A stretch of 64,000 nucleotides of DNA, from IMG/VR virus record IMGVR_UViG_3300038426_000029, positions 17,993 to 81,992 of that record. One strand, 5' to 3'. Shown one piece after another: positions 5,749-57,911 of the stretch (position 1 is the first letter of the stretch; each line of letters starts with the position of its first letter). The notes below the pieces were generated by a model, which was given only the letters and a program-made list of their open reading frames with translations, ran no database searches and was not told where the DNA came from. The DNA is from a virus (lineage: Duplodnaviria > Caudoviricetes). The position numbers were made by a program, and so were the translations under genes.

Positions 5749-6087
5749 ATGTCAAATAACGATTTTGATTTTCCATATTTCTCTGAAATTATGGATAATG
5801 AAGAAACAAAGGTATATGATGAGGTTTGCAAGTTGCCAACACTCAAACTTTTTGAAGAGTTTGACAAGACTATGGAAAATAGTGAGAACATCAAAAACAG
5901 AACTAGATATGATGTTATCAGAGGTGTGATAGCTGATAGGTTGGGACTTTTCCACAGGGATGTTGCTGGTCCTGCCATTGCTGGTGAAATAGCTGAGGCT
6001 AATGATAAAATAGAAGAGTTAGATCGTAAGTTCAAAAACCACAGACATGATACATCCAAGTCCTATTCAGGCAAATCAGAGTGGTGA
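5749..6087 (+). CDS. Hypothetical protein with C-terminal coiled coil
   Basis: Own promoter, plausible composition. Confidence 0.6.
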   Translation: MSNNDFDFPYFSEIMDNEETKVYDEVCKLPTLKLFEEFDKTMENSENIKNRTRYDVIRGVIADRLGLFHRDVAGPAIAGEIAEANDKIEELDRKFKNHRHDTSKSYSGKSEW

Positions 6088-6090
6088 CGG

Positions 6091-6255
6091 TTGGAAAAAA
6101 CAGCACTTTACTGGATTGATAAAGCCATAAAAATAATCCTGTTCGTTCCAATTTTTATTATTTTACTTTTTGCTGATTATATGTTCTATCCAAATCAACA
6201 GCGATATGATGTGGTTGAGGTATTGAAAGAGTGGTGGAATCAGACACCACAGTGA
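6091..6255 (+). CDS. Small membrane protein (54 aa, TTG start; not in track)
   Basis: GGTGA SD 3 nt upstream; MEKTALYWIDKAIKIILFVPIFIILLFADY... Confidence 0.5.
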   Translation: MEKTALYWIDKAIKIILFVPIFIILLFADYMFYPNQQRYDVVEVLKEWWNQTPQ

Positions 6256-6258
6256 TAA

Positions 6259-6849
6259 TCACCACCTGTGCATTATTGATACATTTACACTTCTCTGATG
6301 CTCAAAAACGTTTTTGCCAACAAATCCATTAGCTATGAATTTATCAACAAGATACCCAGTATGAACCTCTATCACACATGGTGTGTGGTAATTTTTGAGT
6401 ATGTCACCATCAAGTAAACCGCCCTCATAACCTTCTATGTCCATCTCCATAAAATGGTGGGGTATTGAGAGCATATCAACTGAAAATGGTTTGCCTATAA
6501 CGATGATGGGGTGAGTTTGGGCATTTTCTTTGAGGTATTTTAATGCAACAGGTTCCATTTCGACAGCTATTACCTGTTTAGCACCAAGTTCTTCTATATA
6601 GAATTTGGAAGTTTCTCCACACCCTGCACCAACATTTAGAACAGTTTTGCCAACTAGGGAAAATGGAGGTTTATAAAGTTTTCTCCATACAGGAAGTTCC
6701 CTATAATATAAATTCTCGAATTCTGGTGAAAAAGACCAGCCTTTCAAACTAGACCTGCGGAACAACATCTTCCAAGGTATGGGTTGCCCATATGCAGTAA
6801 GATGAAGGGGCAATCCTGTATATTTAATTCCTAATTTATTTGTTTTCAT
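6259..6849 (-). CDS. Class I SAM-dependent methyltransferase-like
   Basis: VLNVGAGCG, VIAVE, MDIEG. Confidence 0.7.
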   Translation of the reverse strand: MKTNKLGIKYTGLPLHLTAYGQPIPWKMLFRRSSLKGWSFSPEFENLYYRELPVWRKLYKPPFSLVGKTVLNVGAGCGETSKFYIEELGAKQVIAVEMEPVALKYLKENAQTHPIIVIGKPFSVDMLSIPHHFMEMDIEGYEGGLLDGDILKNYHTPCVIEVHTGYLVDKFIANGFVGKNVFEHQRSVNVSIMHRW

Positions 6850-8828: not shown

Positions 8829-9907
8829 ACTACATTCATCCTTAAAAGTTCATTAATAATTCTTTTTGAAGCATCACGAATTATCAAACCTGAGAATTTC
8901 TGAAATACACTTTTTTGTGCTATATGAATACCATCTATGATCTTTTGTGGATCGGAACCAACAAGACGATTTGCACCCGCTTTTATTGTCCATTCCCATT
9001 CAGTATTCTCTCTCAAAGTTACACATGGAGTACCTAACCAAAATGCTTCCTTCTGCAAACCACCAGAATCTGTGATCACCACACTAGCATCTTGAACGAG
9101 ACTTAACATTTCAAAGTATGGTAATGGGTCTACTATATTAATGTTTTGTAAATTAATACCCAAAAGTTCCAAATTTTTCCTAGTGTGTGGGTGACAGGGG
9201 AAAATAACATTCATATGTGATTCTATGATGGAATTAATTATTGATTTTAATTTATCTAAATCATCAACATTAGATTCTCTATGCAGAGTTAAAACACAAT
9301 ACGTTTTTTCAACAAGACCAAAAAACATTCTTGCTGTTCTTGCTTGATCAATATCTAATTTATGTTGAATTATACTTTCATACATAGTATCACCTGCAAG
9401 TTCTATTTTATCACTTGATATTCCTTCATTTAAGAGATTGGTGATACAATCTGTTGAAACAGCACATAACATAGATGATATATGATCTACAATACGTCTA
9501 TTAACTTCTTCGGGCATAGTCATATCTCCACTTCTAGCACCCGACTCAACATGAACAACGGGAATAGACATCTTTACTGCTGATAAAGCACCTGCTAATG
9601 TCGAGTTTGTATCACCCGGAACAAGAACAATATCGGGTTTCAAACTATTATATGCATCTTCCAAACCACACATCATTTTCGTTATTTGCTGTACAGGTGA
9701 ACACGAACCAACACCCAAGTTTACAACAGGATCAGGAAGGGATAATTCGTTGAAAAATTCCTTTGACATTTCATAATCGTAGTGTTGTCCAGTATGTACT
9801 ATAAACATCTCAATTTCTTTATGCTTTCCAGCTTCGTTTATTATGGGTGCAGACTTGATTATCTGTGGTCTGGTTCCTATGACCAGAGCAATTTTTAATT
9901 TTTTCAT
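8825..9907 (-). CDS. wecB: UDP-N-acetylglucosamine 2-epimerase (non-hydrolysing)
   Basis: GTRPQIIK, HTGQHYD, GDTNS, HVESGARS, PEEVNR, TLHRESN, TDSGGLQKEA. Confidence 0.95.
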   Translation of the reverse strand: MKKLKIALVIGTRPQIIKSAPIINEAGKHKEIEMFIVHTGQHYDYEMSKEFFNELSLPDPVVNLGVGSCSPVQQITKMMCGLEDAYNSLKPDIVLVPGDTNSTLAGALSAVKMSIPVVHVESGARSGDMTMPEEVNRRIVDHISSMLCAVSTDCITNLLNEGISSDKIELAGDTMYESIIQHKLDIDQARTARMFFGLVEKTYCVLTLHRESNVDDLDKLKSIINSIIESHMNVIFPCHPHTRKNLELLGINLQNINIVDPLPYFEMLSLVQDASVVITDSGGLQKEAFWLGTPCVTLRENTEWEWTIKAGANRLVGSDPQKIIDGIHIAQKSVFQKFSGLIIRDASKRIINELLRMNVV

Positions 9908-10902
9908 TTCAACCATTTCTTTCCATATCCAAATTCTGGTTTATTCTTGTTTTTAATTAAAATCCATAGCTGTTTATACTCTCCAATACTCTCCAAAAAC
10001 TGGAATACTAACAAATTTAGGCTCAATTTTCCGTGAGATACAATTACACCATAGCACAATCCAAATATGGACAATGCCAAGGTTAATCCAAATAAGGTTG
10101 CTGACGGAATAGAACCTATGGCTAAACTAAGCAGAATCATAATAATTGAAAATAAAAAGCCAGTTCTTAATAATACACCAAAAAAGTGATGTTTACATAA
10201 CAAACAATAACGCCAACCATATTTATAAAAAAACCTGAAAAAAGTACCTGTTTTTAGGGCTTTGGTTATATTTCTCATTCCATATATACCAAAATGGTAT
10301 CCTTCCGAGCCACAATCAGCACCTATTTTTCCTGCCTGTGATAAACGTATAACTAAATCAAAGTCTTGACCACGTGTAAATAATGGATCAAAACCACCAA
10401 CTTCAATAGCATCCTTTCTCCTAAATGCAATTATTCCAGATAGTGGATCAGCACCATTTGTGTATTTCAGTTCTGTCGAAGCTGGAATTTTCTCTGGATC
10501 AACCTCAGATATTTTACTTGGATTCTCTGGTGTGCCCGAATTACATAAATAAGACAAATTTTCATTACTGACAAAAAAGCCCATCATTCTTTCTACCCAA
10601 TGTTTTGACTTGATTCCATCTGAACTTGCCCAGAGAATTATATCCCCCTTAGCTTTTGATAGTGATAGACTCATAGCATAACCTGTACCTATGCCCTCTC
10701 TATCATAGCACAGTCTAACAGGCACACTACATTTTTTCTGAAAGTCTAATATTAATTCCTCTGTTTTATCTTCACTTTTACCTATGCAAACCACATATTC
10801 ATCTGGTTGAACTACCTGTTCTAACAACATCTTTAATGAATATGGTAGACACCACTCTGCATTACGGGTCGGAAGAACAACAGAGGACATCATTTTTTTC
10901 AC
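9904..10902 (-). CDS. GT2 glycosyltransferase with C-terminal TM helices
   Basis: VVLPTRN, GGFD, GQDFDL; hydrophobic tail. Confidence 0.8.
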   Translation of the reverse strand: MKKMMSSVVLPTRNAEWCLPYSLKMLLEQVVQPDEYVVCIGKSEDKTEELILDFQKKCSVPVRLCYDREGIGTGYAMSLSLSKAKGDIILWASSDGIKSKHWVERMMGFFVSNENLSYLCNSGTPENPSKISEVDPEKIPASTELKYTNGADPLSGIIAFRRKDAIEVGGFDPLFTRGQDFDLVIRLSQAGKIGADCGSEGYHFGIYGMRNITKALKTGTFFRFFYKYGWRYCLLCKHHFFGVLLRTGFLFSIIMILLSLAIGSIPSATLFGLTLALSIFGLCYGVIVSHGKLSLNLLVFQFLESIGEYKQLWILIKNKNKPEFGYGKKWLK

Positions 10903-40788: not shown

Positions 40789-41790
40789 ATGGCATATAGT
40801 AGAGACTTTGAAGAAACACCTGTTGATGCAGAATTTAAACAGAAAGTCAATGTTGAGTATCTTGTACTGAAACAGATAGACCGTTGCAATAATGCCGCAC
40901 TAGAGGGAGATGAGATAAAGTTCTCAAATGCTGTTGAATCTCTCTTGGCAATGTTACCAAAGGAGAACAGACTTAGGATAGAAAATGACAAGACTAGAGA
41001 ACAATACACAGCTAAAGTTGAACAGCCTGTATATAAATATTCCTGTGGCAAACCAATGGGAACTTTGGAAAATCCGATTTTCCGTAACAAACCAACAGAT
41101 TGGAACTATGACGGTGGAGAACCTATCAGAATTTCTCCGATGGTTGAGGAAGTCGAACAGACAGACTACCAGAAATTATACAAGATAATACTCAATGAAC
41201 TACAGGATGTTGGCGTGACTTGGAAAATCGAACCGAGAGGTAATGTGGAAAAGAAGATCGACCCACCACCAATACCACTGTTAAGACTCAAGAATGGAAG
41301 TTTTGTTAGAGTATTGGTTGAAAGAGGTATTGAGGGTGTGAAGGAAGGTATAATTGTGGATAAAGAATCAGCATCACTAGAACCCACACCACCAGAACCA
41401 ATAATGGAACCAGAATCTGATGATGAAAATGAGGACATTAATGATGATGAGGATAAGGATATGAATGAACCAAAAACGTCACTAGAACCTATAAAACACG
41501 AAGTATATGAGGAAACCATTGATGAGGTAACCAAGGAATTAGAGAAAGAGGAAGATAAGGAATTTGCAGAATATAAAGTAATATTAGAAGAAAGAAAAGA
41601 TAAAAAATTAAAACAAAAAATAGATAAAGAAAAGTTTGATAACGAGACACAACAGAAATTAAAAGAAACGGAGATAGGAAATATTATATTAGTTAGTGAA
41701 GAGATACCAACTACAAATACACAACCAGAAGCAATTATGTCAAAACCAATAAAAAAGAAAAAATTAACAATGAAAAACATAGATGAATAA
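40789..41790 (+). CDS. Hypothetical protein with acidic low-complexity C-terminal half
   Basis: D/E/K-rich; co-oriented with ATPase. Confidence 0.7.
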   Translation: MAYSRDFEETPVDAEFKQKVNVEYLVLKQIDRCNNAALEGDEIKFSNAVESLLAMLPKENRLRIENDKTREQYTAKVEQPVYKYSCGKPMGTLENPIFRNKPTDWNYDGGEPIRISPMVEEVEQTDYQKLYKIILNELQDVGVTWKIEPRGNVEKKIDPPPIPLLRLKNGSFVRVLVERGIEGVKEGIIVDKESASLEPTPPEPIMEPESDDENEDINDDEDKDMNEPKTSLEPIKHEVYEETIDEVTKELEKEEDKEFAEYKVILEERKDKKLKQKIDKEKFDNETQQKLKETEIGNIILVSEEIPTTNTQPEAIMSKPIKKKKLTMKNIDE

Positions 41791-41792
41791 AC

Positions 41793-42887
41793 ATGAGTAC
41801 AAAATCTAAAAGAATTTTTAAAAGAACCACAATAAGAAAAGTTGGTGGTGATGAATTCGTTGATCCACCAAAGGGGTACAAGGGTGCAAATCGTTGGACA
41901 AATTGGCATGGGGTCAGGGCTGAGTTTGGTTCGGGTTATGGCACTTTCTTGCTCGATGAGCTACAGGAAAAAAGGGATAATATTGAGGCTTGTATTGTTG
42001 TCGTAACAGGCGGTGGTGGAAAAGGGAAAACCTATTTCACTCTGAGACTTGCAGAAATTTTAGACCCTAAGTTCGATGTAGACGTTCAAGTTCCATTTGG
42101 TCCAGATGAATTCATGGAACTGATTGGTCCAGATAGTCCTTTGGGTATTGGCAGGGTAATAGTGGTCGATGAAAGTCAATTTGCGATCTCTAGCCGGGAC
42201 TGGTATGCAGACATTCAGAAGGACTTGATGAAGCAACTTGAGGCTATTCGTTCAAAGGGATTCATAATCTTCATAGTCTGTTTGTCAGAGGCAACTCTAG
42301 ATGTTATAGCAAGATCGTGGGTCATAACACATAAAATACATCTAATGAAAAGAGGTAGAGCTAGAGTGTATTCATATCAAACCGGACCTTTTTCTACGAA
42401 GCCTTATCCCCGAACAATCAGCAAGGATGAGAAAATGACACTTCCGGGTGCGGAATACTGTGAACACTCTTCGTGTTTAAAATGCCCATACTCTGGTGTA
42501 GCACAGCCACAATGGAAACTTAGAAACAGATGGGAAGAACTAAATACACCATTATGTCAAACAATAAGAGCTTTATATGAGAGGAAAAAGAAATTCTTCC
42601 TGACAGAGATGGCTGAGATCGCCAATGAGAAGAGAAGGGAAGCCCAAATGAAAAAGACACAGCTTTCTGATATAGTTGCCACATTGAAAGAACATACTAC
42701 TATGCTCAGAAAGACCAAGAGAAACCGCATAGACATAAACTCTGCGTCTGCCATAATACGCCAATTTCTGGGAAGTGGGATTCCAGACAATTTTGTTAAA
42801 AAGGCGTGTAGAGAACTGGATGTAGATACCGATACGATGGACACGGTGCAGATGTTAAATTATTTAGTCAAACCAAAAGAAAAATAG
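41793..42887 (+). CDS. P-loop ATPase, FtsK/HerA/A32-like (candidate genome-packaging ATPase)
   Basis: Walker A TGGGGKGKT, Walker B VIVVDE, SSRDW..Q, IRSKG, LDVIAR. Confidence 0.75.
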   Translation: MSTKSKRIFKRTTIRKVGGDEFVDPPKGYKGANRWTNWHGVRAEFGSGYGTFLLDELQEKRDNIEACIVVVTGGGGKGKTYFTLRLAEILDPKFDVDVQVPFGPDEFMELIGPDSPLGIGRVIVVDESQFAISSRDWYADIQKDLMKQLEAIRSKGFIIFIVCLSEATLDVIARSWVITHKIHLMKRGRARVYSYQTGPFSTKPYPRTISKDEKMTLPGAEYCEHSSCLKCPYSGVAQPQWKLRNRWEELNTPLCQTIRALYERKKKFFLTEMAEIANEKRREAQMKKTQLSDIVATLKEHTTMLRKTKRNRIDINSASAIIRQFLGSGIPDNFVKKACRELDVDTDTMDTVQMLNYLVKPKEK

Positions 42888-43114: not shown

Positions 43115-43825
43115 ATGGATCACAGAAGTGTAGAAACGTTCAGGCTGGATATTGGGGGCTGGAAAGGATGGGAGTGGTTTGATGCTATTTACAATAAATG
43201 TAAAAATTTGGAACAAAAGGCAATTTTAATAGGGCTTTTAAAAACAGGTTCGAGAAGTAATGAATTAAACAAATTAACTAAACAAATGGTAGATGTGGAT
43301 ACCTATAAAGAAAAAGGTAAAGAAATGATTCTTATAAAGTCACAACCACTAGAGAAACAAAAAAAGGCTATACAATTAGTTGATAAAGATGGTAAATATA
43401 TGTATGATGGAATGAGAAGGCTATACAGATTTGAGCATATTGAGGGATGGAGAACTTATGCGTTCCCAAAGAATGAAAAATACTCTAAACAATTTTTAAA
43501 ATTTGTCGATCAAGTAGAAAACCCAAAAGATCAGGTATTTCCATTTACTTACAGCCAAATCTATTATAGAATTTGTACCATTGGGATGGAGTTACCAGAA
43601 GGTGTTCCTATGAAGGATTGGGCATATCATTTGGATGAAGGGTGTGGGCTGTTCCCGCATGAATTACGAAGTATTCGTGCCTGTCAACTTTTGAGGGATT
43701 ATGAGTATAACAACCAGAAATTACGTAAGTTCTTTGGATGGGCAGAAGATAGCCCAATGCCTGATCACTACATGGAACTAACAGCAGATGACTTGATACC
43801 ATCACCTGAACGTATGCCTAAGTGA
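43115..43825 (+). CDS. Tyrosine recombinase/integrase catalytic domain
   Basis: KTGSRSNEL (R), PHELRSIR (HxxR), FGW, MPDHY (Y). Confidence 0.85.
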   Translation: MDHRSVETFRLDIGGWKGWEWFDAIYNKCKNLEQKAILIGLLKTGSRSNELNKLTKQMVDVDTYKEKGKEMILIKSQPLEKQKKAIQLVDKDGKYMYDGMRRLYRFEHIEGWRTYAFPKNEKYSKQFLKFVDQVENPKDQVFPFTYSQIYYRICTIGMELPEGVPMKDWAYHLDEGCGLFPHELRSIRACQLLRDYEYNNQKLRKFFGWAEDSPMPDHYMELTADDLIPSPERMPK

Positions 43826-45566: not shown

Positions 45567-45713
45567 TTATTTTGAATGTAGTTTATGAAAATCGTCTAGC
45601 TTTAAATCCACCTCATAAATTTGTATGTCCAGCTTCTTGGCAATCTCAGCCGCAGAGAAACCTTCATCATGTAGCCTCAAAACATCGGCTTCTTTATCCT
45701 TTGTCCATATCAT
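45567..45713 (-). CDS. 48-aa HTH protein (not in track)
   Basis: MIWTKDKEADVLRLHDEGFSAAEIAKKLDI. Confidence 0.65.
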   Translation of the reverse strand: MIWTKDKEADVLRLHDEGFSAAEIAKKLDIQIYEVDLKLDDFHKLHSK

Positions 45714-45732
45714 TTTAAAACACACCACTGAC

Positions 45733-46041
45733 TTACTTTACTCTTTCCAACCAACGACACTTGGGGCACTTGAAATAGTTGTTTGTGTATCGGTATCCTT
45801 TGACAGATTTATACACCATGTTTGCCCCACACTTTGGGCAGACCTTTTTTGGTGATAGTTGTTTCTTTGGTCTGTACTTTTCTCGTTGCTTGATTCTATA
45901 TTCATCATCCACACCATCTGGATTGGTAATCTTTTGCGGGTATCTCTCACAACCATGCTTTAACTTCTTGTCATAGTTGTCATAACATTCACCGCATGGT
46001 ATTCCACAACGACTATAACCCATAACCTTTTTACTTACCAT
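45733..46041 (-). CDS. Double Zn-binding protein (C-terminal zinc ribbon)
   Basis: CGIPCGEC..C; CPKC..CPKC. Confidence 0.65.
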   Translation of the reverse strand: MVSKKVMGYSRCGIPCGECYDNYDKKLKHGCERYPQKITNPDGVDDEYRIKQREKYRPKKQLSPKKVCPKCGANMVYKSVKGYRYTNNYFKCPKCRWLERVK

Positions 46042-46201
46042 AGTGTGCCCTTCCTTGTATATAATCTTCAATATGCTCTGGATGCTTTGCTACTATATGT
46101 CTTCCATATCTGGTTTCTCCCTGTAAGACATCTATGCAATATTTACACTGGATAGGTTTGCTTCCCTTTCCCTTAACATACTTTCGACCAGTTCTGCCCA
46201 T
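46031..46201 (-). CDS. C2H2 zinc-finger protein (not in track)
   Basis: IQCKYC...RHIVAKHPEHIEDY. Confidence 0.65.
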   Translation of the reverse strand: MGRTGRKYVKGKGSKPIQCKYCIDVLQGETRYGRHIVAKHPEHIEDYIQGRAHYGK

Positions 46202-46244
46202 ACATTATCCAATAAAGTATATGTCAGGTTACTTATAAACTTTT

Positions 46245-46502
46245 CTAGTTCTCATCGGAACTGAATTTACTTGCACACTCGTCACACATGCCCTGTTTGA
46301 TATAATAATCCATAAATGGCATTTTTTTGTGACACTCAGAACAGCGTTTGTCTGGAAGTTTAAAATATGAAAGCATCTCAATGACTGGTTGATACCAGAA
46401 TTGACCAACATTCACATCGACTTCACCAAGAGCATCCATTAATGACTCACAGGCATGAACATCATGCAGACTTGGTTTAAATTTTATTTTACGATCCACC
46501 AA
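46245..46502 (-). CDS. Small Zn-finger protein
   Basis: CSEC..CDEC. Confidence 0.6.
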   Translation of the reverse strand: MVDRKIKFKPSLHDVHACESLMDALGEVDVNVGQFWYQPVIEMLSYFKLPDKRCSECHKKMPFMDYYIKQGMCDECASKFSSDEN

Positions 46503-46534
46503 TATCTCTCAAAATACACAGCTATCTGTGTTGC

Positions 46535-46813
46535 TTATAAGCCTTTTGTTTTTCGGCTGAGAAATTCCCAACCATCCATATTTTTGTCAATCAGGTTAAG
46601 CCAACGACCATCGACCCTTGACCAACCAGTACCATAACCAACCTGTATTGTGATGAATGGTTTTCTACCTTTTATGATATTATACCTTGCTTCAACACGT
46701 GTATGCTTGGGTATGTCTTTGAACTTTTTTAATGTGAGGGCAGTGCCTAGATTTTCATATGTTACCTTTACAAGTTTGTGATTCTTATAAAAAGAATACT
46801 CAGGCATCTTCAA
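46535..46813 (-). CDS. Small basic protein
   Basis: K/R-rich; operonic. Confidence 0.6.
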   Translation of the reverse strand: MKMPEYSFYKNHKLVKVTYENLGTALTLKKFKDIPKHTRVEARYNIIKGRKPFITIQVGYGTGWSRVDGRWLNLIDKNMDGWEFLSRKTKGL

Positions 46814-47053
46814 TCACATTTTATATTCTGTTCTAGTATTTGTATCTTTCGGCTTGTGTGTGAACCTGAAATACTTTTCCCTGTTTTTCTTCAACGGACC
46901 AGAGTGTTTCTTGAGGTTGGACTTGGCTATTTTCGGTGTTTGATCTCTGACTTTCCCCGCCTTGGTAATTGAACCGTGCGTTCCCCGACCACCCTTCTTA
47001 CCAGAAGATTGCTGTGCCTTTTCTAGCTTTTTATTTAATTTGGTTTCGGACAT
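46814..47053 (-). CDS. rps30e: Ribosomal protein eS30 homolog with basic N-terminal extension
   Basis: THGSITKAGKVRDQTPKIAK...NREKYFRF matches eS30 consensus HGSLx(K/R)AGKVRxQTPK. Confidence 0.88.
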   Translation of the reverse strand: MSETKLNKKLEKAQQSSGKKGGRGTHGSITKAGKVRDQTPKIAKSNLKKHSGPLKKNREKYFRFTHKPKDTNTRTEYKM

Positions 47054-47241
47054 TACCTCTTACCCCTACCATGTCCTGTTGGTTCATAACAATCCCCAAC
47101 CCATTTAACATAATGTATTCCACCATCTTTAGATTCAATCCATATATTACCATTATAAGGGTCTTGATAAACTGTTCGTTTTATCATTTTACCATTAAAA
47201 AAAATATTCTTTTTACCTATTTTTCTTATTTTTTCTATCAT
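47053..47241 (-). CDS. Small basic protein
   Basis: TAATG overlap with rps30e start. Confidence 0.6.
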   Translation of the reverse strand: MIEKIRKIGKKNIFFNGKMIKRTVYQDPYNGNIWIESKDGGIHYVKWVGDCYEPTGHGRGKR

Positions 47242-47439
47242 TTATTTTCCCGTCCTCAGCCACTTATTGTAGTTTTTGGTTTCCTTGTAGTAAACACCAT
47301 ACCCTTTCTTGGTACGCTTTACCTTTATACCAACATAGGTCTTATGTTTCATAACACCATGCTTGGTTTTTCTTAGACTCTTTGCATGTTCATCGGCTTC
47401 TTTTTTGGTTTCCCAAACATACGCTAATTTATATGACAT
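47242..47439 (-). CDS. Small basic protein, family A
   Basis: Y...W.TKKEA...A..LR...Y.VY pattern. Confidence 0.6.
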   Translation of the reverse strand: MSYKLAYVWETKKEADEHAKSLRKTKHGVMKHKTYVGIKVKRTKKGYGVYYKETKNYNKWLRTGK

Positions 47440-47443
47440 TTTT

Positions 47444-47716
47444 TCACCTCTTTTCCCATTCTGCTTTTCCAGTTTTCTGGTTATATACCTTGGTTGGTCT
47501 GTGCCTGTACAATACATAAACCTTGATTCCCTTCTCCTTTGTTGGGAAGGTTTTTACTATGGTTTTGTGCCCACGTTTTCTATCAGACTCTGCCCATTCT
47601 AGAGCATGTGGTCTGTATGTGCTATGAGATGACATAACCTCATAACGTTTACCTCTGTAGATAATATATTCTGGAATTTCGAGTTTCATACCGCGTGCAA
47701 TAATTGTGTGTGTCAT
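47444..47716 (-). CDS. Small basic protein, family A
   Basis: YRGKRY...A...A...RKRG....VY.LYR. Confidence 0.6.
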   Translation of the reverse strand: MTHTIIARGMKLEIPEYIIYRGKRYEVMSSHSTYRPHALEWAESDRKRGHKTIVKTFPTKEKGIKVYVLYRHRPTKVYNQKTGKAEWEKR

Positions 47717-47832
47717 TTACTTTTTACCACTTTTTTCTTACTCTTTCGTTTTCTGGTTTTTTTCTTCTTAGGAAATGCCATCCTAAACCCTTTTTTAGCA
47801 GAATCTCCAAATGCTTTGAATATCTCTGCCAT
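47713..47832 (-). CDS. 39-aa lysine-rich peptide (not in track)
   Basis: ...FPKKKKTRKRKSKKKVVKSK; ATGA overlap. Confidence 0.5.
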   Translation of the reverse strand: MAEIFKAFGDSAKKGFRMAFPKKKKTRKRKSKKKVVKSK

Positions 47833-47833
47833 T

Positions 47834-48013
47834 TTACTTTTCTCTCCAATAAACTACGTATTTATGATCTTCAACCACAATACGTGCTAAATCTCCATAA
47901 TCATGCAAATGTTTTACGCTTTTCTCTGCAAGTTTCCTTGTAGGATATGCTTCATGGAACTTATAAGGCTTTCCATTAAAATCCTTATATGGAAATTTAG
48001 ACTCTAGTTTCAT
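47834..48013 (-). CDS. Small basic protein, family A (not in track)
   Basis: FNGKPYKFHEAYPTRKLAEKSVKHLHDYGDLARIV..YVVYWREK. Confidence 0.65.
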   Translation of the reverse strand: MKLESKFPYKDFNGKPYKFHEAYPTRKLAEKSVKHLHDYGDLARIVVEDHKYVVYWREK

Positions 48014-48014
48014 T

Positions 48015-48527
48015 TTACTTTTTTTCCCTTAAGTTTACTTTCCAAACCTTTACCTTCACAGTCTTTGTTTTAGCAAGACCAGCACCCATGAAACCATGTG
48101 GGAAATATTGGAAAGTCTGATTCTTCCATCCTGCTGGTTTCATTCTTGAGGCTTTTATATAGAAGGCGGGTCCACCTGAAGATTGAACAAACCCCCTGTC
48201 CCACCAAGGTGCAGGAGATGGGTTGAATGTTACCATGTACTCTGATTTACTTTTACCAATTGCTCCCTCTATAACGCCATATGAAGTTGATCTAACAAGC
48301 ATATCCTGAGAATTGATTGGCTTAACTACATCTCCGGGCATTGGTTTACTTCCACCAATACGCTTTGTCTTTTTAGAGTCTAAGTATAGTGGGTTTTTCT
48401 CCATTTTTTTATAGCTACCCATACGTATACCAAAGCTACCTCTGGTGTGTGGGCTTATCTTTTTCCCACTCTTTGTCTTATAACCGCTTACAATGTGTCT
48501 AAGTGGTGGACTTCTTTTTGTTACCAT
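48015..48527 (-). CDS. Basic protein with SPxxHxVxxY..G..H.RG N-terminal motif
   Basis: Motif shared with 37061-37366. Confidence 0.65.
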   Translation of the reverse strand: MVTKRSPPLRHIVSGYKTKSGKKISPHTRGSFGIRMGSYKKMEKNPLYLDSKKTKRIGGSKPMPGDVVKPINSQDMLVRSTSYGVIEGAIGKSKSEYMVTFNPSPAPWWDRGFVQSSGGPAFYIKASRMKPAGWKNQTFQYFPHGFMGAGLAKTKTVKVKVWKVNLREKK

Positions 48528-48545
48528 TTTTGTCTTTTCCTCACC

Positions 48546-48749
48546 CTACTTTTTTCTTCTGTTTTTGGAAATGTATGACTTTTTACCTTCTTGTGCAAGT
48601 AGTGTTTTCCAAATATAGTTAGCTTTCCGAGCCTGTGCTGGTTTCAAACGATGTCCAAACAGAATACCATACAAACCTTCACTTCCTAGATAGTATCTAT
48701 AATCAGCATCTATAGAAATACCTTTTCTACGAATATACTTTGTTACCAT
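48546..48749 (-). CDS. Small basic protein
   Basis: Operonic TAAAAATG spacing. Confidence 0.55.
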   Translation of the reverse strand: MVTKYIRRKGISIDADYRYYLGSEGLYGILFGHRLKPAQARKANYIWKTLLAQEGKKSYISKNRRKK

Positions 48750-48751
48750 TT

Positions 48752-49126
48752 TTAGTCTTTTCCTCTCTTCCTTCTCCAAACACCATATCCGTGTGGATGT
48801 TTTATCAGCTTGTAGTTACCCCTTCCATAAATGTCCTTACCCATCTTGACAGCTTGCGTTTTTAGGGGTGCTGAACCAGCCATCTCAAATCGTGTACCCT
48901 TGAGGATACGATCTGTAGTTGAGTGATGAATGTAGATAGCATATACTGTTTCTCTAGCATATGGAATCTTCTTAATGTAAATCATAGACTCTTTGAAAAG
49001 TTTGCGATCTTTACCTATTCTCTTTGCATCTGACATGGACTTTGCGTTCCATTCATGCCTGTAAATTAACCCGTTATGGGTTACTTCTTTGGGAATCTTC
49101 CCACCAGTTTGATATATAAATACCAT
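48752..49126 (-). CDS. Basic protein with two family A units
   Basis: HNGLIY...AK..G..VY.IY and A.K.QA..MG...YGVWRRK. Confidence 0.6.
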   Translation of the reverse strand: MVFIYQTGGKIPKEVTHNGLIYRHEWNAKSMSDAKRIGKDRKLFKESMIYIKKIPYARETVYAIYIHHSTTDRILKGTRFEMAGSAPLKTQAVKMGKDIYGRGNYKLIKHPHGYGVWRRKRGKD

Positions 49127-49127
49127 T

Positions 49128-49214
49128 TTACTTAGACATCCTCTGCTTTTTTCTTCTTCTAGCTTTCTTTGCCCTACTTTTGTCACCCTTCCGTGACATT
49201 CCTCTATTTTTCAT
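49128..49214 (-). CDS. 28-aa protamine-like peptide (not in track)
   Basis: MKNRGMSRKGDKSRAKKARRRKKQRMSK exactly fills the operon gap. Confidence 0.45.
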   Translation of the reverse strand: MKNRGMSRKGDKSRAKKARRRKKQRMSK

Positions 49215-49216
49215 TA

Positions 49217-49381
49217 TTACTTCTTTCTCCTTGTTTTTTTAACCTTCTTTTTTACTGATTTTATTTTGGGAATTGGTATGGGTTTGTTTTTTATGGTAGT
49301 TACCTGTAAAACAGGTGATTGTTTTGGCACAAACAACTTATTTAAAGTTGTTGGTTGTGTTGCTAACATACCTTTTGGCAT
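49217..49381 (-). CDS. 54-aa basic peptide (not in track)
   Basis: P/T-rich then KKKVKKTRRKK. Confidence 0.5.
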   Translation of the reverse strand: MPKGMLATQPTTLNKLFVPKQSPVLQVTTIKNKPIPIPKIKSVKKKVKKTRRKK

Positions 49382-49383
49382 TT

Positions 49384-49575
49384 TTACTTTTTCCTCCTAT
49401 ATACATCAAATACAGACTTACCATCATCAGTCTTGCGTTCAGCAACGATAGCTTGATATTTTCCAGATTCCATAATTTCTATTACCCTAAGTGCTGAGTT
49501 TTGTTTTTTTCTGAAAGTGGAATCATATCTGTAGAATTTACGTCTATATGTGGCTGTTAATGGATGATCTTGCAT
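49384..49575 (-). CDS. Small basic protein, family A
   Basis: YRRKFY...F.KK..A......G.YQAIV...VFDVYRRKK; GAGGGTGA SD. Confidence 0.6.
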   Translation of the reverse strand: MQDHPLTATYRRKFYRYDSTFRKKQNSALRVIEIMESGKYQAIVAERKTDDGKSVFDVYRRKK

Positions 49576-49681
49576 TTACTTTTTCACCCTCACGTAAATT
49601 ACATAACGCTTTCCCAATTTAATCAATATAGTATTGTGTTCAGTAGTATTTAAATGTTATGATATAAAAACCACGATGAGG

Positions 49682-49798
49682 TTAATGAAAAATAAGTAAG
49701 TAAGCTACAACCAGAGCTACAATAGTAAAAATAACAACCATTACACTTACAGCAATCACGATGCCTTCAATAGCACTTTTGATAATATCATCAGACAT
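49682..49798 (-). CDS. 38-aa very hydrophobic peptide (not in track)
   Basis: MSDDIIKSAIEGIVIAVSVMVVIFTIVALVVAYLLIFH; promoter ACCACAAACTTTATA at ~49830-49844. Confidence 0.5.
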   Translation of the reverse strand: MSDDIIKSAIEGIVIAVSVMVVIFTIVALVVAYLLIFH

Positions 49799-49865
49799 GT
49801 TGATCATATATAAAATATATGCAGTTACCTATAAAGTTTGTGGTAATTAATATAAAAAATGGATT

Positions 49866-50186
49866 TTAATCTAAAACTAGACCTAACAGAACACAGGAAC
49901 CACAATGTTTCTTGGTATCGTGAGATACCTTACTCCATTTCCAGACAGTGATTTTTCTGTAATGGCTGGATGGAATTTCTGATCTAACCATCTTACCAGT
50001 CGGTACGATGTGACCATACATACTCAGGTATCTAAAGAAACCACCAATACTAAAGGTTTCATTGTCAAGATACTGTTCAAGTCCAAGTTCCCTAAAATCA
50101 TCGGATGTGATTGTAGGTTGATCCTTTGTCTTTGTGTAAAAAACCTTACCCAACAAACTATAGTTGTTTTGAATAATCTTATTCAT
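49866..50186 (-). CDS. Hypothetical protein, possible winged-helix DNA binder
   Basis: Own promoter; SH.RKI.VWKW tail. Confidence 0.6.
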   Translation of the reverse strand: MNKIIQNNYSLLGKVFYTKTKDQPTITSDDFRELGLEQYLDNETFSIGGFFRYLSMYGHIVPTGKMVRSEIPSSHYRKITVWKWSKVSHDTKKHCGSCVLLGLVLD

Positions 50187-55928: not shown

Positions 55929-56092
55929 TCCCACACACTCTTCCCAGTTATATCATCTAATGTAGGATATATTACAGTGATATAAAAACCTTCCGATATT
56001 AGTAGTTATCTTATATAAATATAATATAATTCTGGGGTTTCTACTCCATCTACGCTTCCACTTTCTACTCCTATTGTATGATATAACCTATA

Positions 56093-56114
56093 AACCGAAA
56101 CACTTTTATATAAG
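56093..56114 (+). promoter_or_regulatory. BRE-TATA promoter of collagen gene 1
   Basis: AACCGAAACACTTTTATATAAG. Confidence 0.7.
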
Positions 56115-56142
56115 TTCGGTATTTTCATATACGGTAGAAAAC

Positions 56143-56952
<810 letters not shown>

Positions 56953-57003
56953 ACCATCTATCTTCCCTTTTTTATTTTTATTATCATATAAATATTTCTA
57001 ACC

Positions 57004-57021
57004 AACCACAAAGTTTATAAA
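57004..57021 (+). promoter_or_regulatory. BRE-TATA promoter of collagen gene 2
   Basis: AACCACAAAGTTTATAAA. Confidence 0.65.
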
Positions 57022-57053
57022 TGAGAACGGTTTTCATATATAACTGATAGAAG

Positions 57054-57911
57054 ATGTTTAACAAACTAAGTTTAGGAATGTTTATTATACTTATACTAGG
57101 CGTAATGTCTCTGGGTTTAGCTTCAGCTACACCATCACCTACGATCATGTTGAATCCATCTACAGGTGTGACAACAACAATTATGGGTTCTGGATTCCAA
57201 GCCAACCAGACTATCAAAATATATTGGAACACAACACAGATGGTTACAATTCCATATAACATCACCTCTGACTCTCTGGGTGGTTTTGTATGCATGGTCA
57301 CTGCTCTAGATCAAATGGGTGGGAACTTTACAATTACTGCTGTAGATACTGCCCTCACTTCTGATACAACTTCAGCAAACTTCACCGTGCCTATTCTAAA
57401 AGGTGTTACAGGTTCTAACGGTACAAATGGATCAACATGGTATAGTAGTGCTACAATACCAAATGTAAATTCAACAGGTGTAAATGGTGATTTCTGCCTC
57501 TATACAGGAAATTCAACTGTTTATGAGAAAATATCTGGTTCATGGGTTTTCACAGCAAACATTAGAGGATTAATAGGTAGAACTGGTGCTACAGGTGCTA
57601 GAGGTGCAACAGGAGCCACCGGAGCCAAAGGTGCTACTGGTACAACTGGACCTGTTGGACCAATAGGTGTTACAGGAACTACAGGAACAATAGGTAAAAC
57701 TGGTCCTATTGGTGAAACGGGTGCTACGGGTTTACAAGGACCAAAAGGTGACACAGGCACAACAGGTTCAATAGGAGCAAAGGGTGACACAGGTGCTACA
57801 GGGGCTACGGGTGAAAATGCAGACTTAACCTTAGTATATGCCTCTCTAGTATTGGGTGCTGGGGCTATAATCGGTGTACTCTACCTAAACCACAGAGAAA
57901 ATGGATATTAA
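57054..57911 (+). CDS. Ig-like domain + collagen-like (28 Gly-X-Y) membrane-anchored protein
   Basis: Signal peptide, GSGF..N..I.IYW beta domain, 8 N-x-S/T sequons, C-terminal TM. Confidence 0.88.

Follow-up and report, generated by a model that had tools for sequence, protein, structure and literature searches.

A candidate virus-type long form of ribosomal protein eS30 on a large Bathyarchaeia-associated element

What could a virus-like element of archaea gain from its own gene for the ribosomal protein eS30, and from an altered N-terminal end of this protein? The question is raised by a window of 64,000 nt, by which we mean the whole stretch of DNA that was analysed (IMG/VR record IMGVR_UViG_3300038426_000029, positions 17,993-81,992; all coordinates count from the start of the window). 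An initial annotation had claimed a virus-encoded eS30 at 46814-47053. The ribosomal proteins encoded by viruses come mainly from phages and belong to bacterial types. In contrast, eS30 is a protein of eukaryote type and one of three such proteins of the small subunit which among archaea are restricted to TACK and Asgard. Judged by the sequence comparisons described below, we regard the gene as a real and selected variant of eS30 of a virus type, located on a large element that is associated with Bathyarchaeia.

The eS30 gene and its N-terminal head

The gene lies on the minus strand (46814..47053) and encodes 79 amino acids including the start, with an ATG start codon and a TGA stop at 46814-46816. 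The claim of an eS30 at this position passed the check with a profile: the Pfam family Ribosomal_S30 (PF04758) matches with 41.1 bits (E 2e-10) against a gathering score of 27, spanning residues 25-66 of the protein and profile positions 2-44 of 58. The S30e equivalog model of NCBIfam (NF006817) also matches (E 8e-13), with 48 bits short of the 75 demanded by its equivalog cut-off. Furthermore, 70 distinct eS30 chain sequences from the PDB match the protein (E up to 1, best E 5e-7), and these chains originate from solved eukaryotic and archaeal ribosomes.

The conserved core (codons 26-66; 46856..46978, minus strand) contains HGS-TKAGKVR-QTPK followed by the GP..NR..Y region. Its first part, H26-K41, reads HGSITKAGKVRDQTPK, and this is the core that had been noted initially. 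The motif H-G-S-[LI]-x-K-A-G-K-V-R-x-Q-T-P-K is kept, and its columns are invariant or nearly invariant in 21 relatives as well as in the 61 long forms introduced below; the columns without any exchange in the 21 relatives are H26, G27, K31, A32, G33, K34, V35, R36, T39, P53 and R58. The C-terminal part, the end with which ribosomal eS30 is described to line the mRNA channel (PMC8354635), is basic (KKHSGPLKKNREKY) with a helix at 53-66 in the AF2 model. The last residues (codons 67-79; 46817..46855, minus strand) contain an HKPKD motif, and a comparison with L003, L005, L016, L027 and L029 reveals their resemblance to the H-x-P-x-D/E tails of Bathyarchaeia eS30. We therefore consider the ORF a true eS30 homologue, with an intact rRNA-binding core.

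The difference to the cellular proteins is found at the N-terminal end, where a basic head (codons 1-25; 46979..47053, minus strand) with a predicted helix at 5-12, a Gly-rich linker and a GGRGT junction replaces the cellular M-P-T/S start. As 25 residues precede the conserved His compared to three (M-P-T/S) in cellular archaeal eS30, approximately 22 residues are additional, which agrees with the basic extension of about this length described in the initial annotation. The archaeal signature Met-Pro-Thr/Ser before HGS (MPGS in Asgard) is absent, and position -2 is occupied by Gly. Reading the DNA directly, we found no in-frame ATG, GTG or TTG between M1 and H26, so that this gene cannot yield a short form. 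A GAGGT motif resembling a Shine-Dalgarno sequence (47055..47059, minus strand) is located 3 nt 5' of the ATG. The ATG itself shares bases with the stop codon of the ORF upstream (TAATG), a hint that both genes are translationally coupled. In the AF2 model a short helix (5-12) is followed by a disordered linker (14-21, pLDDT <50) and a moderately confident core, while the confidence for the head is low.

To estimate the constraint on the individual parts, Nei-Gojobori counts were made for four orthologous genes from different metagenomes (window, L083, L087 and L089). The dN/dS ratio was 0.04-0.12 in the head and 0.02-0.12 in the core where it could be computed, with synonymous differences of 0.4-0.85 per site (pS), which is near saturation. 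Purifying selection is thus as strong on the head as on the core. From this low ratio we conclude that the head is translated and selected together with the rest of the protein, and did not arise from wrong gene calling. The gene is also intact and under purifying selection in head and core (dN/dS 0.02-0.12, four orthologues), and not a decaying pick-up.

A further hint towards the function of the core arises from its variability. The per-column entropy of the core in the long forms correlates with that in cellular eS30 (r = 0.91), and the residues H, G, K, G, KVR and T occur in at least 95% of the long forms. The agreement with cellular eS30 argues that the same rRNA-binding pocket is still used.

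One resemblance of the head to another ribosomal protein is reported here as a side observation. The basic and Gly-rich N-terminus of cellular Bathyarchaeia eS26 (KKRSSGGRSKG...; L118-L121) is similar to QQSSGKKGGRG in the head of the window protein (46979-47053), at a non-significant phmmer E of 0.26; the likeness probably reflects the shared composition of rRNA-binding tails. An eS26 homologue in the window was not found with three Bathyarchaeia eS26 queries (tblastn and phmmer).

The long-form family and its genomic contexts

The gene is part of a tight co-directional block of approximately 16 small, mostly K/R-rich orphan genes on the minus strand (45567..50186). This is in agreement with the operon of small basic ORFs that had been proposed, and also the stated lack of neighbouring ribosomal protein genes was confirmed: ribosomal protein families are absent from the 24 nearby ORFs scanned (37.8-54.6 kb). 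The small K/R-rich ORFs around eS30 (47242-49575) do not belong to a Pfam family. The same holds for the two direct neighbours, which are a 62-aa ORF upstream (47053..47241, minus strand), putatively coupled to eS30, and a basic 92-aa ORF downstream (46535..46813, minus strand), whose true start is likely the ATG at 46807.

Three metagenomic contigs (L083, L087, L089) are collinear with the eS30 part of the window, including this block. Their eS30 proteins are 75-91% identical to that of the window, and the proteins of the small-gene block are 75-96% identical. The downstream 92-aa ORF is kept beside eS30 in L083 (36% identity) and L089 (81% identity). The slot 5' of eS30 is occupied differently: it contains an orphan gene of 170 aa in L083 (2746-3255), L087 (1869-2381) and L089 (3638-4150), and the unrelated 62-aa ORF in the window. 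One gene has been replaced by another directly at the start of eS30.

Beyond these orthologues, a word-indexed search retrieved 20 relatives with a length of 63-98 aa, most of them with a similar head and the junction GGRGT-HGS. With the alignment of these relatives a HMMER search of 1.84 billion cluster representatives was performed, which yielded 982 members of the eS30 family. The sequences in hand were sorted by what precedes the conserved His, leading to 61 distinct long forms, all metagenomic, and 67 sequences with a canonical start. As a comparison set we used 147 cellular or canonical-start archaeal eS30 copies, all of which start with M-P-T/S-HGS, MPGS-HGS or in an equivalent short manner.

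In the 61 long forms the median length of the head is 20 residues up to His. Its net charge is +4 (median), and Lys and Arg together account for 32% of the residues. The junction to the core has the form G-[RK]-G-[TS] in most sequences (GRGT in 32 of 61), or x-S-G. Gly is found at position -4 in 41 and at position -5 in 30 of the 61 long forms, and a second junction type, K-x-S-G-HGS, lacks the GG. Pro does not occur at position -2 in any of the 61. The canonical-start sequences begin with [MVIL]-P-T/S in 53 out of 67 cases and with MPGS in seven. All 80 cellular loci from GTDB (80/80) encode a short form with M-P-T/S, M-P-G-S or an equivalent start.

The initial annotation had suggested a survey of viral contigs. 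Every long-form context that could be read is virus-like or mobile-element-like, and none is situated among housekeeping genes; two viral IMG/VR contigs of 76.7 and 136 kb (L001, L002) encode a short-form eS30. Among the contigs with long forms, L086 (eS30 at 10001-10297, sequence P0018) contains a gene for an HK97-type capsid protein and Rad51, and another one a family B polymerase (PolB) with a LAGLIDADG insert together with Mom. RNA ligase, a Topo VI-A-like Toprim protein and ERCC4 accompany the long form in L092, and a B12 radical SAM protein, Dam and RNase H in L093. The 91-kb contig L107 carries a glycan (glycosylation) island, and a contig of 60 kb consists of orphan genes around the long form. 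In the 20.8-kb contig L108 the long eS30 (9510-9716) is located in a one-strand array with a CCA-adding enzyme, the peptidyl-tRNA hydrolase PTH2, NAPRTase and a gene of the isochorismatase family. Such a toolkit for translation and NAD, of the CCA-adding enzyme/PTH2/NAPRTase type, is typical of very large viruses. As the neighbours differ between the groups of contexts, long eS30 is not tied to one operon.

The element and its probable host

The window is coding to approximately 94% (rough greedy ORF call) with 35% G+C. A tRNA, an rRNA or any other Rfam family was not detected in the 64 kb, and a scan of 40 ORFs left 23 without a Pfam family. The gene content includes a sugar/glycan pathway island of about 24 kb with an STT3/AglB-like transferase, paralogues of a NUMOD3-repeat (homing) nuclease, two DNA methylases (Dam-family and N4/N6) and a ParB-radical-SAM fusion. 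A weak-scoring tyrosine recombinase (43115..43825, plus strand) has a 79% identical copy in L083 and a 78% identical one on a contig of a Bathyarchaeia MAG. Also on the plus strand (40789..42887) the gene of an acidic protein of 333 aa is paired with that of a P-loop ATPase, the latter with Walker A GGGGKGKT and Walker B VIVVDE. In the protein-language-model (Atlas) clusters nearest to the ATPase, viral sequences make up 83-100%, and AAA or Zot families are assigned to 12-17% of the members; its AF2 model from a four-sequence alignment (pLDDT 48) was too poor for a fold search. Scans of IMG/VR did not retrieve close relatives of the ATPase or of the 1160-aa protein of the window.

The two giant proteins (1420 and 1160 aa) and most ORFs of medium size had no match in Pfam and PHROGs, and a capsid, portal or terminase was not recognised in the window with either collection. 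Since no hallmark of capsid or packaging was found, we use the term large virus-like element; the status as a virus rather than another mobile element, which we consider likely, is based on gene content and relatives. One could argue that the window is a piece of the chromosome of an uncultured archaeon, or an integrated island, and that eS30 is this organism's own unusual copy. The missing hallmark genes and some genes of housekeeping type (an archaeal SAM synthetase, sugar-pathway enzymes) would fit such an explanation. The lack of RNA genes and Rfam matches, the 23 of 40 scanned ORFs without a Pfam family, and the presence of homing-nuclease paralogues, methylases and a recombinase speak against it, as do the long forms on contigs which encode a capsid or replication proteins of viruses. 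In addition, all 80 GTDB loci and every checked match among 201 Bathyarchaeia genomes are short forms. We regard a cellular origin of the window as very improbable. The DNA thus does not resemble a chromosome, and the putative host class possesses its own canonical eS30, which answers the concern that the contig might be chromosomal and this eS30 the only copy of the host.

As an observation aside, two adjacent secreted proteins of the window (56074-57911) are collagen-like with GXY repeats, in a region with a local G+C of 43.6%. They match many PHROGs of phage tail fibres, but only via the repeats.

The initial annotation had read eS30 as a pointer to the host lineage, and this can now be sharpened: the host of the element is probably a member of Bathyarchaeia. 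The closest cellular eS30 cores are almost all from this class, with 56% identity over residues 22-74 and a shared tail of the H-K-P-x-D type. The archaeal SAM synthetase of the window reaches its best score, 333 bits, with a Bathyarchaeia chromosome, compared to 280 with a genome of Thermoprotei. When 401 Bathyarchaeia genomes were searched at the DNA level, one MAG matched the recombinase region with 73-85% nucleotide identity and two others matched the ATPase region with 67%. Homologues of the pair of 333-aa protein and ATPase, 50-60% identical in amino acids, also occur in Bathyarchaeia MAGs.

Two of these loci were viewed together with their surroundings. The 78% identical recombinase is found at 5783-6517 of a 12.9-kb Bathyarchaeia MAG contig (L114), beside a gene resembling the primase small subunit and orphan ORFs; this contig is probably a related element that was integrated or mis-binned. 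In L117 (9362-11006) the homologous 333-aa/ATPase pair is flanked by genes for POR, an ACS-like protein, an amidohydrolase and AOR. Either a very small remnant of an integrated element is seen here, or the pair is cellular and was borrowed by the element.

With respect to eS30 itself, 169 out of 201 sampled Bathyarchaeia genomes had a match and none a confirmed long form. As Bathyarchaeia have a canonical eS30 of their own, the copy of the element is an extra and structurally different one and not the only gene of the host. One candidate for a cellular long form, an open frame of 82 aa in a Bathyarchaeia MAG (G167:C171), has a cellular context and no standard start for the long frame, and was treated as canonical. 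Approximately 15 Bathyarchaeia MAGs, among them G047, G125, G137, G140, G143, G146, G149, G158, G170, G182, G188, G191, G194 and G202, have two eS30 matches on different contigs (two were inspected); these could be strain mixtures, contamination or binned viral contigs.

A phylogeny had been recommended as a check as well. It placed the window next to Bathyarchaeia, in trees that are weak because eS30 offers 50 alignable columns only. In a tree of 242 rows, which is unresolved as a whole, the window falls into a group of 22-28 sequences, almost exclusively long forms (SH-aLRT 90), next to Bathyarchaeia. In a more careful tree of 75 rows its group contains 17 long forms with a weak support of 80/24. 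Other long forms of the same tree are found with Pyrodictiaceae (100/90), Asgard (95/81) and Nitrososphaerales (97/91), and from its well-supported branches we obtain at least four placements of long forms. A single clade of all long forms was not rejected by the AU test (p = 0.073). Either the head arose once and the cores were later homogenised to those of the hosts, or it arose several times.

A potential role on the ribosome

Structural knowledge of eS30 provides an argument regarding the position of the head. The protein is located between h16 and h18, on the small subunit's shoulder (PMC8354635). In the 30S subunit of Saccharolobus solfataricus (PDB 9fhl) it lies within the mRNA entry channel and contacts h16, and its Pro2, the first residue after removal of Met, packs on h44 at G1448-A1449, near the A site; Pro2 is present in most archaeal eS30 (PMC11698992). 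A conserved His in the tail of eukaryotic eS30 stabilises the codon-anticodon pair in the A site, and this tail also contacts eEF2 and eIF1A, while the role of the tail in archaea is still unknown (PMC11698992).

We propose that during infection the long eS30 would be built into the 30S subunit of the host at the normal site (h16/h18, mRNA entry channel), thereby displacing the eS30 of the host. The long form keeps His and the core and has, in place of the Pro cap, a flexible Gly-rich junction and about 20 further basic residues, so that a positively charged peptide may be placed in the region of the A site and h44. To the benefit of viral mRNAs, this could alter the binding of aIF1A, the selection of start sites, decoding or translocation. 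Alternatively, it might keep the ribosomes of the infected cell working. The published 30S structures place the N-terminus of eS30 on h44 at the A site, and for this reason incorporation into the 30S subunit with an altered decoding or initiation site is the likeliest explanation. That the window gene is a functional long eS30 of virus type, from an archaeal virus-like element whose host is most likely a member of Bathyarchaeia, and that its protein alters the 30S subunit of the host, is a proposal which in our estimate stands an even chance of being correct.

A wider version of the proposal would be that a swap to long eS30, with the head in the pocket formed by h44 and the A site, is how large viruses of archaea remodel the ribosomes of hosts from several phyla (Bathyarchaeia, Nitrososphaeria, Thermoprotei, Asgard); this we consider possible but doubtful. 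If it is true, specialised ribosomes of the virus would exist with altered initiation (aIF1A, leaderless compared to SD-led mRNAs) or decoding. The junction shared across host lineages would then mean that recombination with host copies took place repeatedly without loss of the head, or that the head is convergent.

The same position of the head could also serve another purpose. In human cells the late maturation of 40S is blocked if FUBI remains uncleaved at the N-terminus of eS30 (PMC8354635), and the effect of a head at the same place could therefore be to poison the ribosome and not to tune it. The protein would then be a host shut-off factor, a dominant-negative inhibitor of host translation which plugs the A site and h44 or blocks 30S maturation. 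Its N-terminus pointing at the A site and h44, the impaired maturation of human 40S with uncleaved FUBI-eS30 (PMC8354635) and the loss of the conserved Pro2 cap are in line with this. The virus needs ribosomes itself, however, and a mechanism which spares viral translation is not evident; the head is short and flexible, unlike the bulky domain of FUBI. About 60 diverse forms are conserved, on elements with pro-translation genes (CCA-adding enzyme, PTH2), which fits support or retuning of translation better, and we consider a shut-off factor unlikely. Less likely again is a repurposed protein acting outside of ribosomes, which would coat or condense the viral genome or bind viral RNA together with its small K/R-rich neighbours. 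Such a role would explain why eS30 is surrounded by small basic orphan genes in a block that is conserved, and why the protein is very basic and, according to the model, largely unstructured. A generic polyanion binder does not need the exact HGS-TKAGKVR-QTP motif, yet this motif is nearly invariant (entropy r = 0.91), and in unrelated contigs with long eS30 the neighbours are wholly different without a conserved link to a basic operon. Conservation of the core thus favours, as far as sequences can tell, a modification of the ribosome over a role in binding nucleic acids.

Finally, the head might be a cleavable leader, cut for example near GG|RGT in analogy to FUBI-GG|KV-HGS, which releases an almost canonical eS30 and thereby raises or maintains its supply. 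Two features are compatible with a leader: when aligned with human FAU, KKGG-RGT-HGS of the viral protein comes to lie over MLGG-KV-HGS, and di-glycine is common in the long forms (G at -4 in 41/61, at -5 in 30/61). But the 22 residues have no ubiquitin-like fold and at most one short helix, the second junction type K-x-S-G-HGS lacks GG, and nothing points to a protease. Purifying selection over the whole head exceeds what a leader that is thrown away would be expected to show, and viruses also carry plain short forms (L001 and L002 of IMG/VR). We consider a leader improbable.

Ribosomal proteins encoded by phages include bS21, bL12, bS1, bL9 and others (Mizuno et al. 2019, PMC6375957), and eL40 was reported for Nucleocytoviricota (PMC11499249). 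The window gene has in common with these cases that a large viral, or in this case virus-like, genome carries the gene of a single, small and surface-exposed ribosomal protein, in variable contexts and with presumed incorporation into ribosomes. It differs from the known viral ribosomal proteins in being of archaeal/eukaryotic type and located at the mRNA entry channel and the A site, and from plain host copies among them in its lineage-wide N-terminal head. The only viral eS30 in the list of Mizuno et al. is that of FBR murine sarcoma retrovirus (PMC6375957), which is an antisense fragment of fau and not translated (PMC11499249). In archaeal viruses, L21e was the only known ribosomal protein before bL19 (Duan et al. 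2024, PMC10848311). Novelty in this group had been left to a literature check, in which eS30 did not appear besides L21e and bL19; a report of a viral long eS30 was not found in the searchable literature (full text, eS30/S30e/Ribosomal_S30 combined with virus terms). Neither long nor short viral queries matched an eS30 in 50,697 GenBank records of phages and archaeal viruses.

The selected change at the A-site end of eS30 would offer a natural experiment on the eS30 tail in archaeal translation, and long eS30 represents a candidate case of specialised ribosomes made by viruses. As a marker gene of small size it might also help to detect large archaeal viruses that are uncultured, and to assign their hosts.

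Compared to cellular archaeal eS30 (PF04758; S. solfataricus, PDB 9fhl), the window protein shares the HGS-L/I-TKAGKVR-x-QTPK core, GP..NR..Y and the basic tail. It is distinguished by the approximately 22 extra residues, by GGRGT in place of Met-Pro-Thr/Ser, by its location on a virus-like element among orphan genes and by a score below the cut-off of NF006817. FUBI-eS30 of holozoans (FAU; PMC8354635) likewise has an additional N-terminal sequence with Gly-Gly shortly before the conserved His. FUBI is a ubiquitin-like domain of 74 residues which is removed by USP36 (PMC8354635), whereas the viral head has 22 residues and no ubiquitin fold; moreover, RGT separates GG from His in the window protein, and many long forms lack GG. 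The opposite end of the protein varies as well: some eS30 homologues, such as the long form P0018 of contig L086 and the short-start sequence P0052, possess a C-terminal zinc ribbon of the type CxxC...CxxC.
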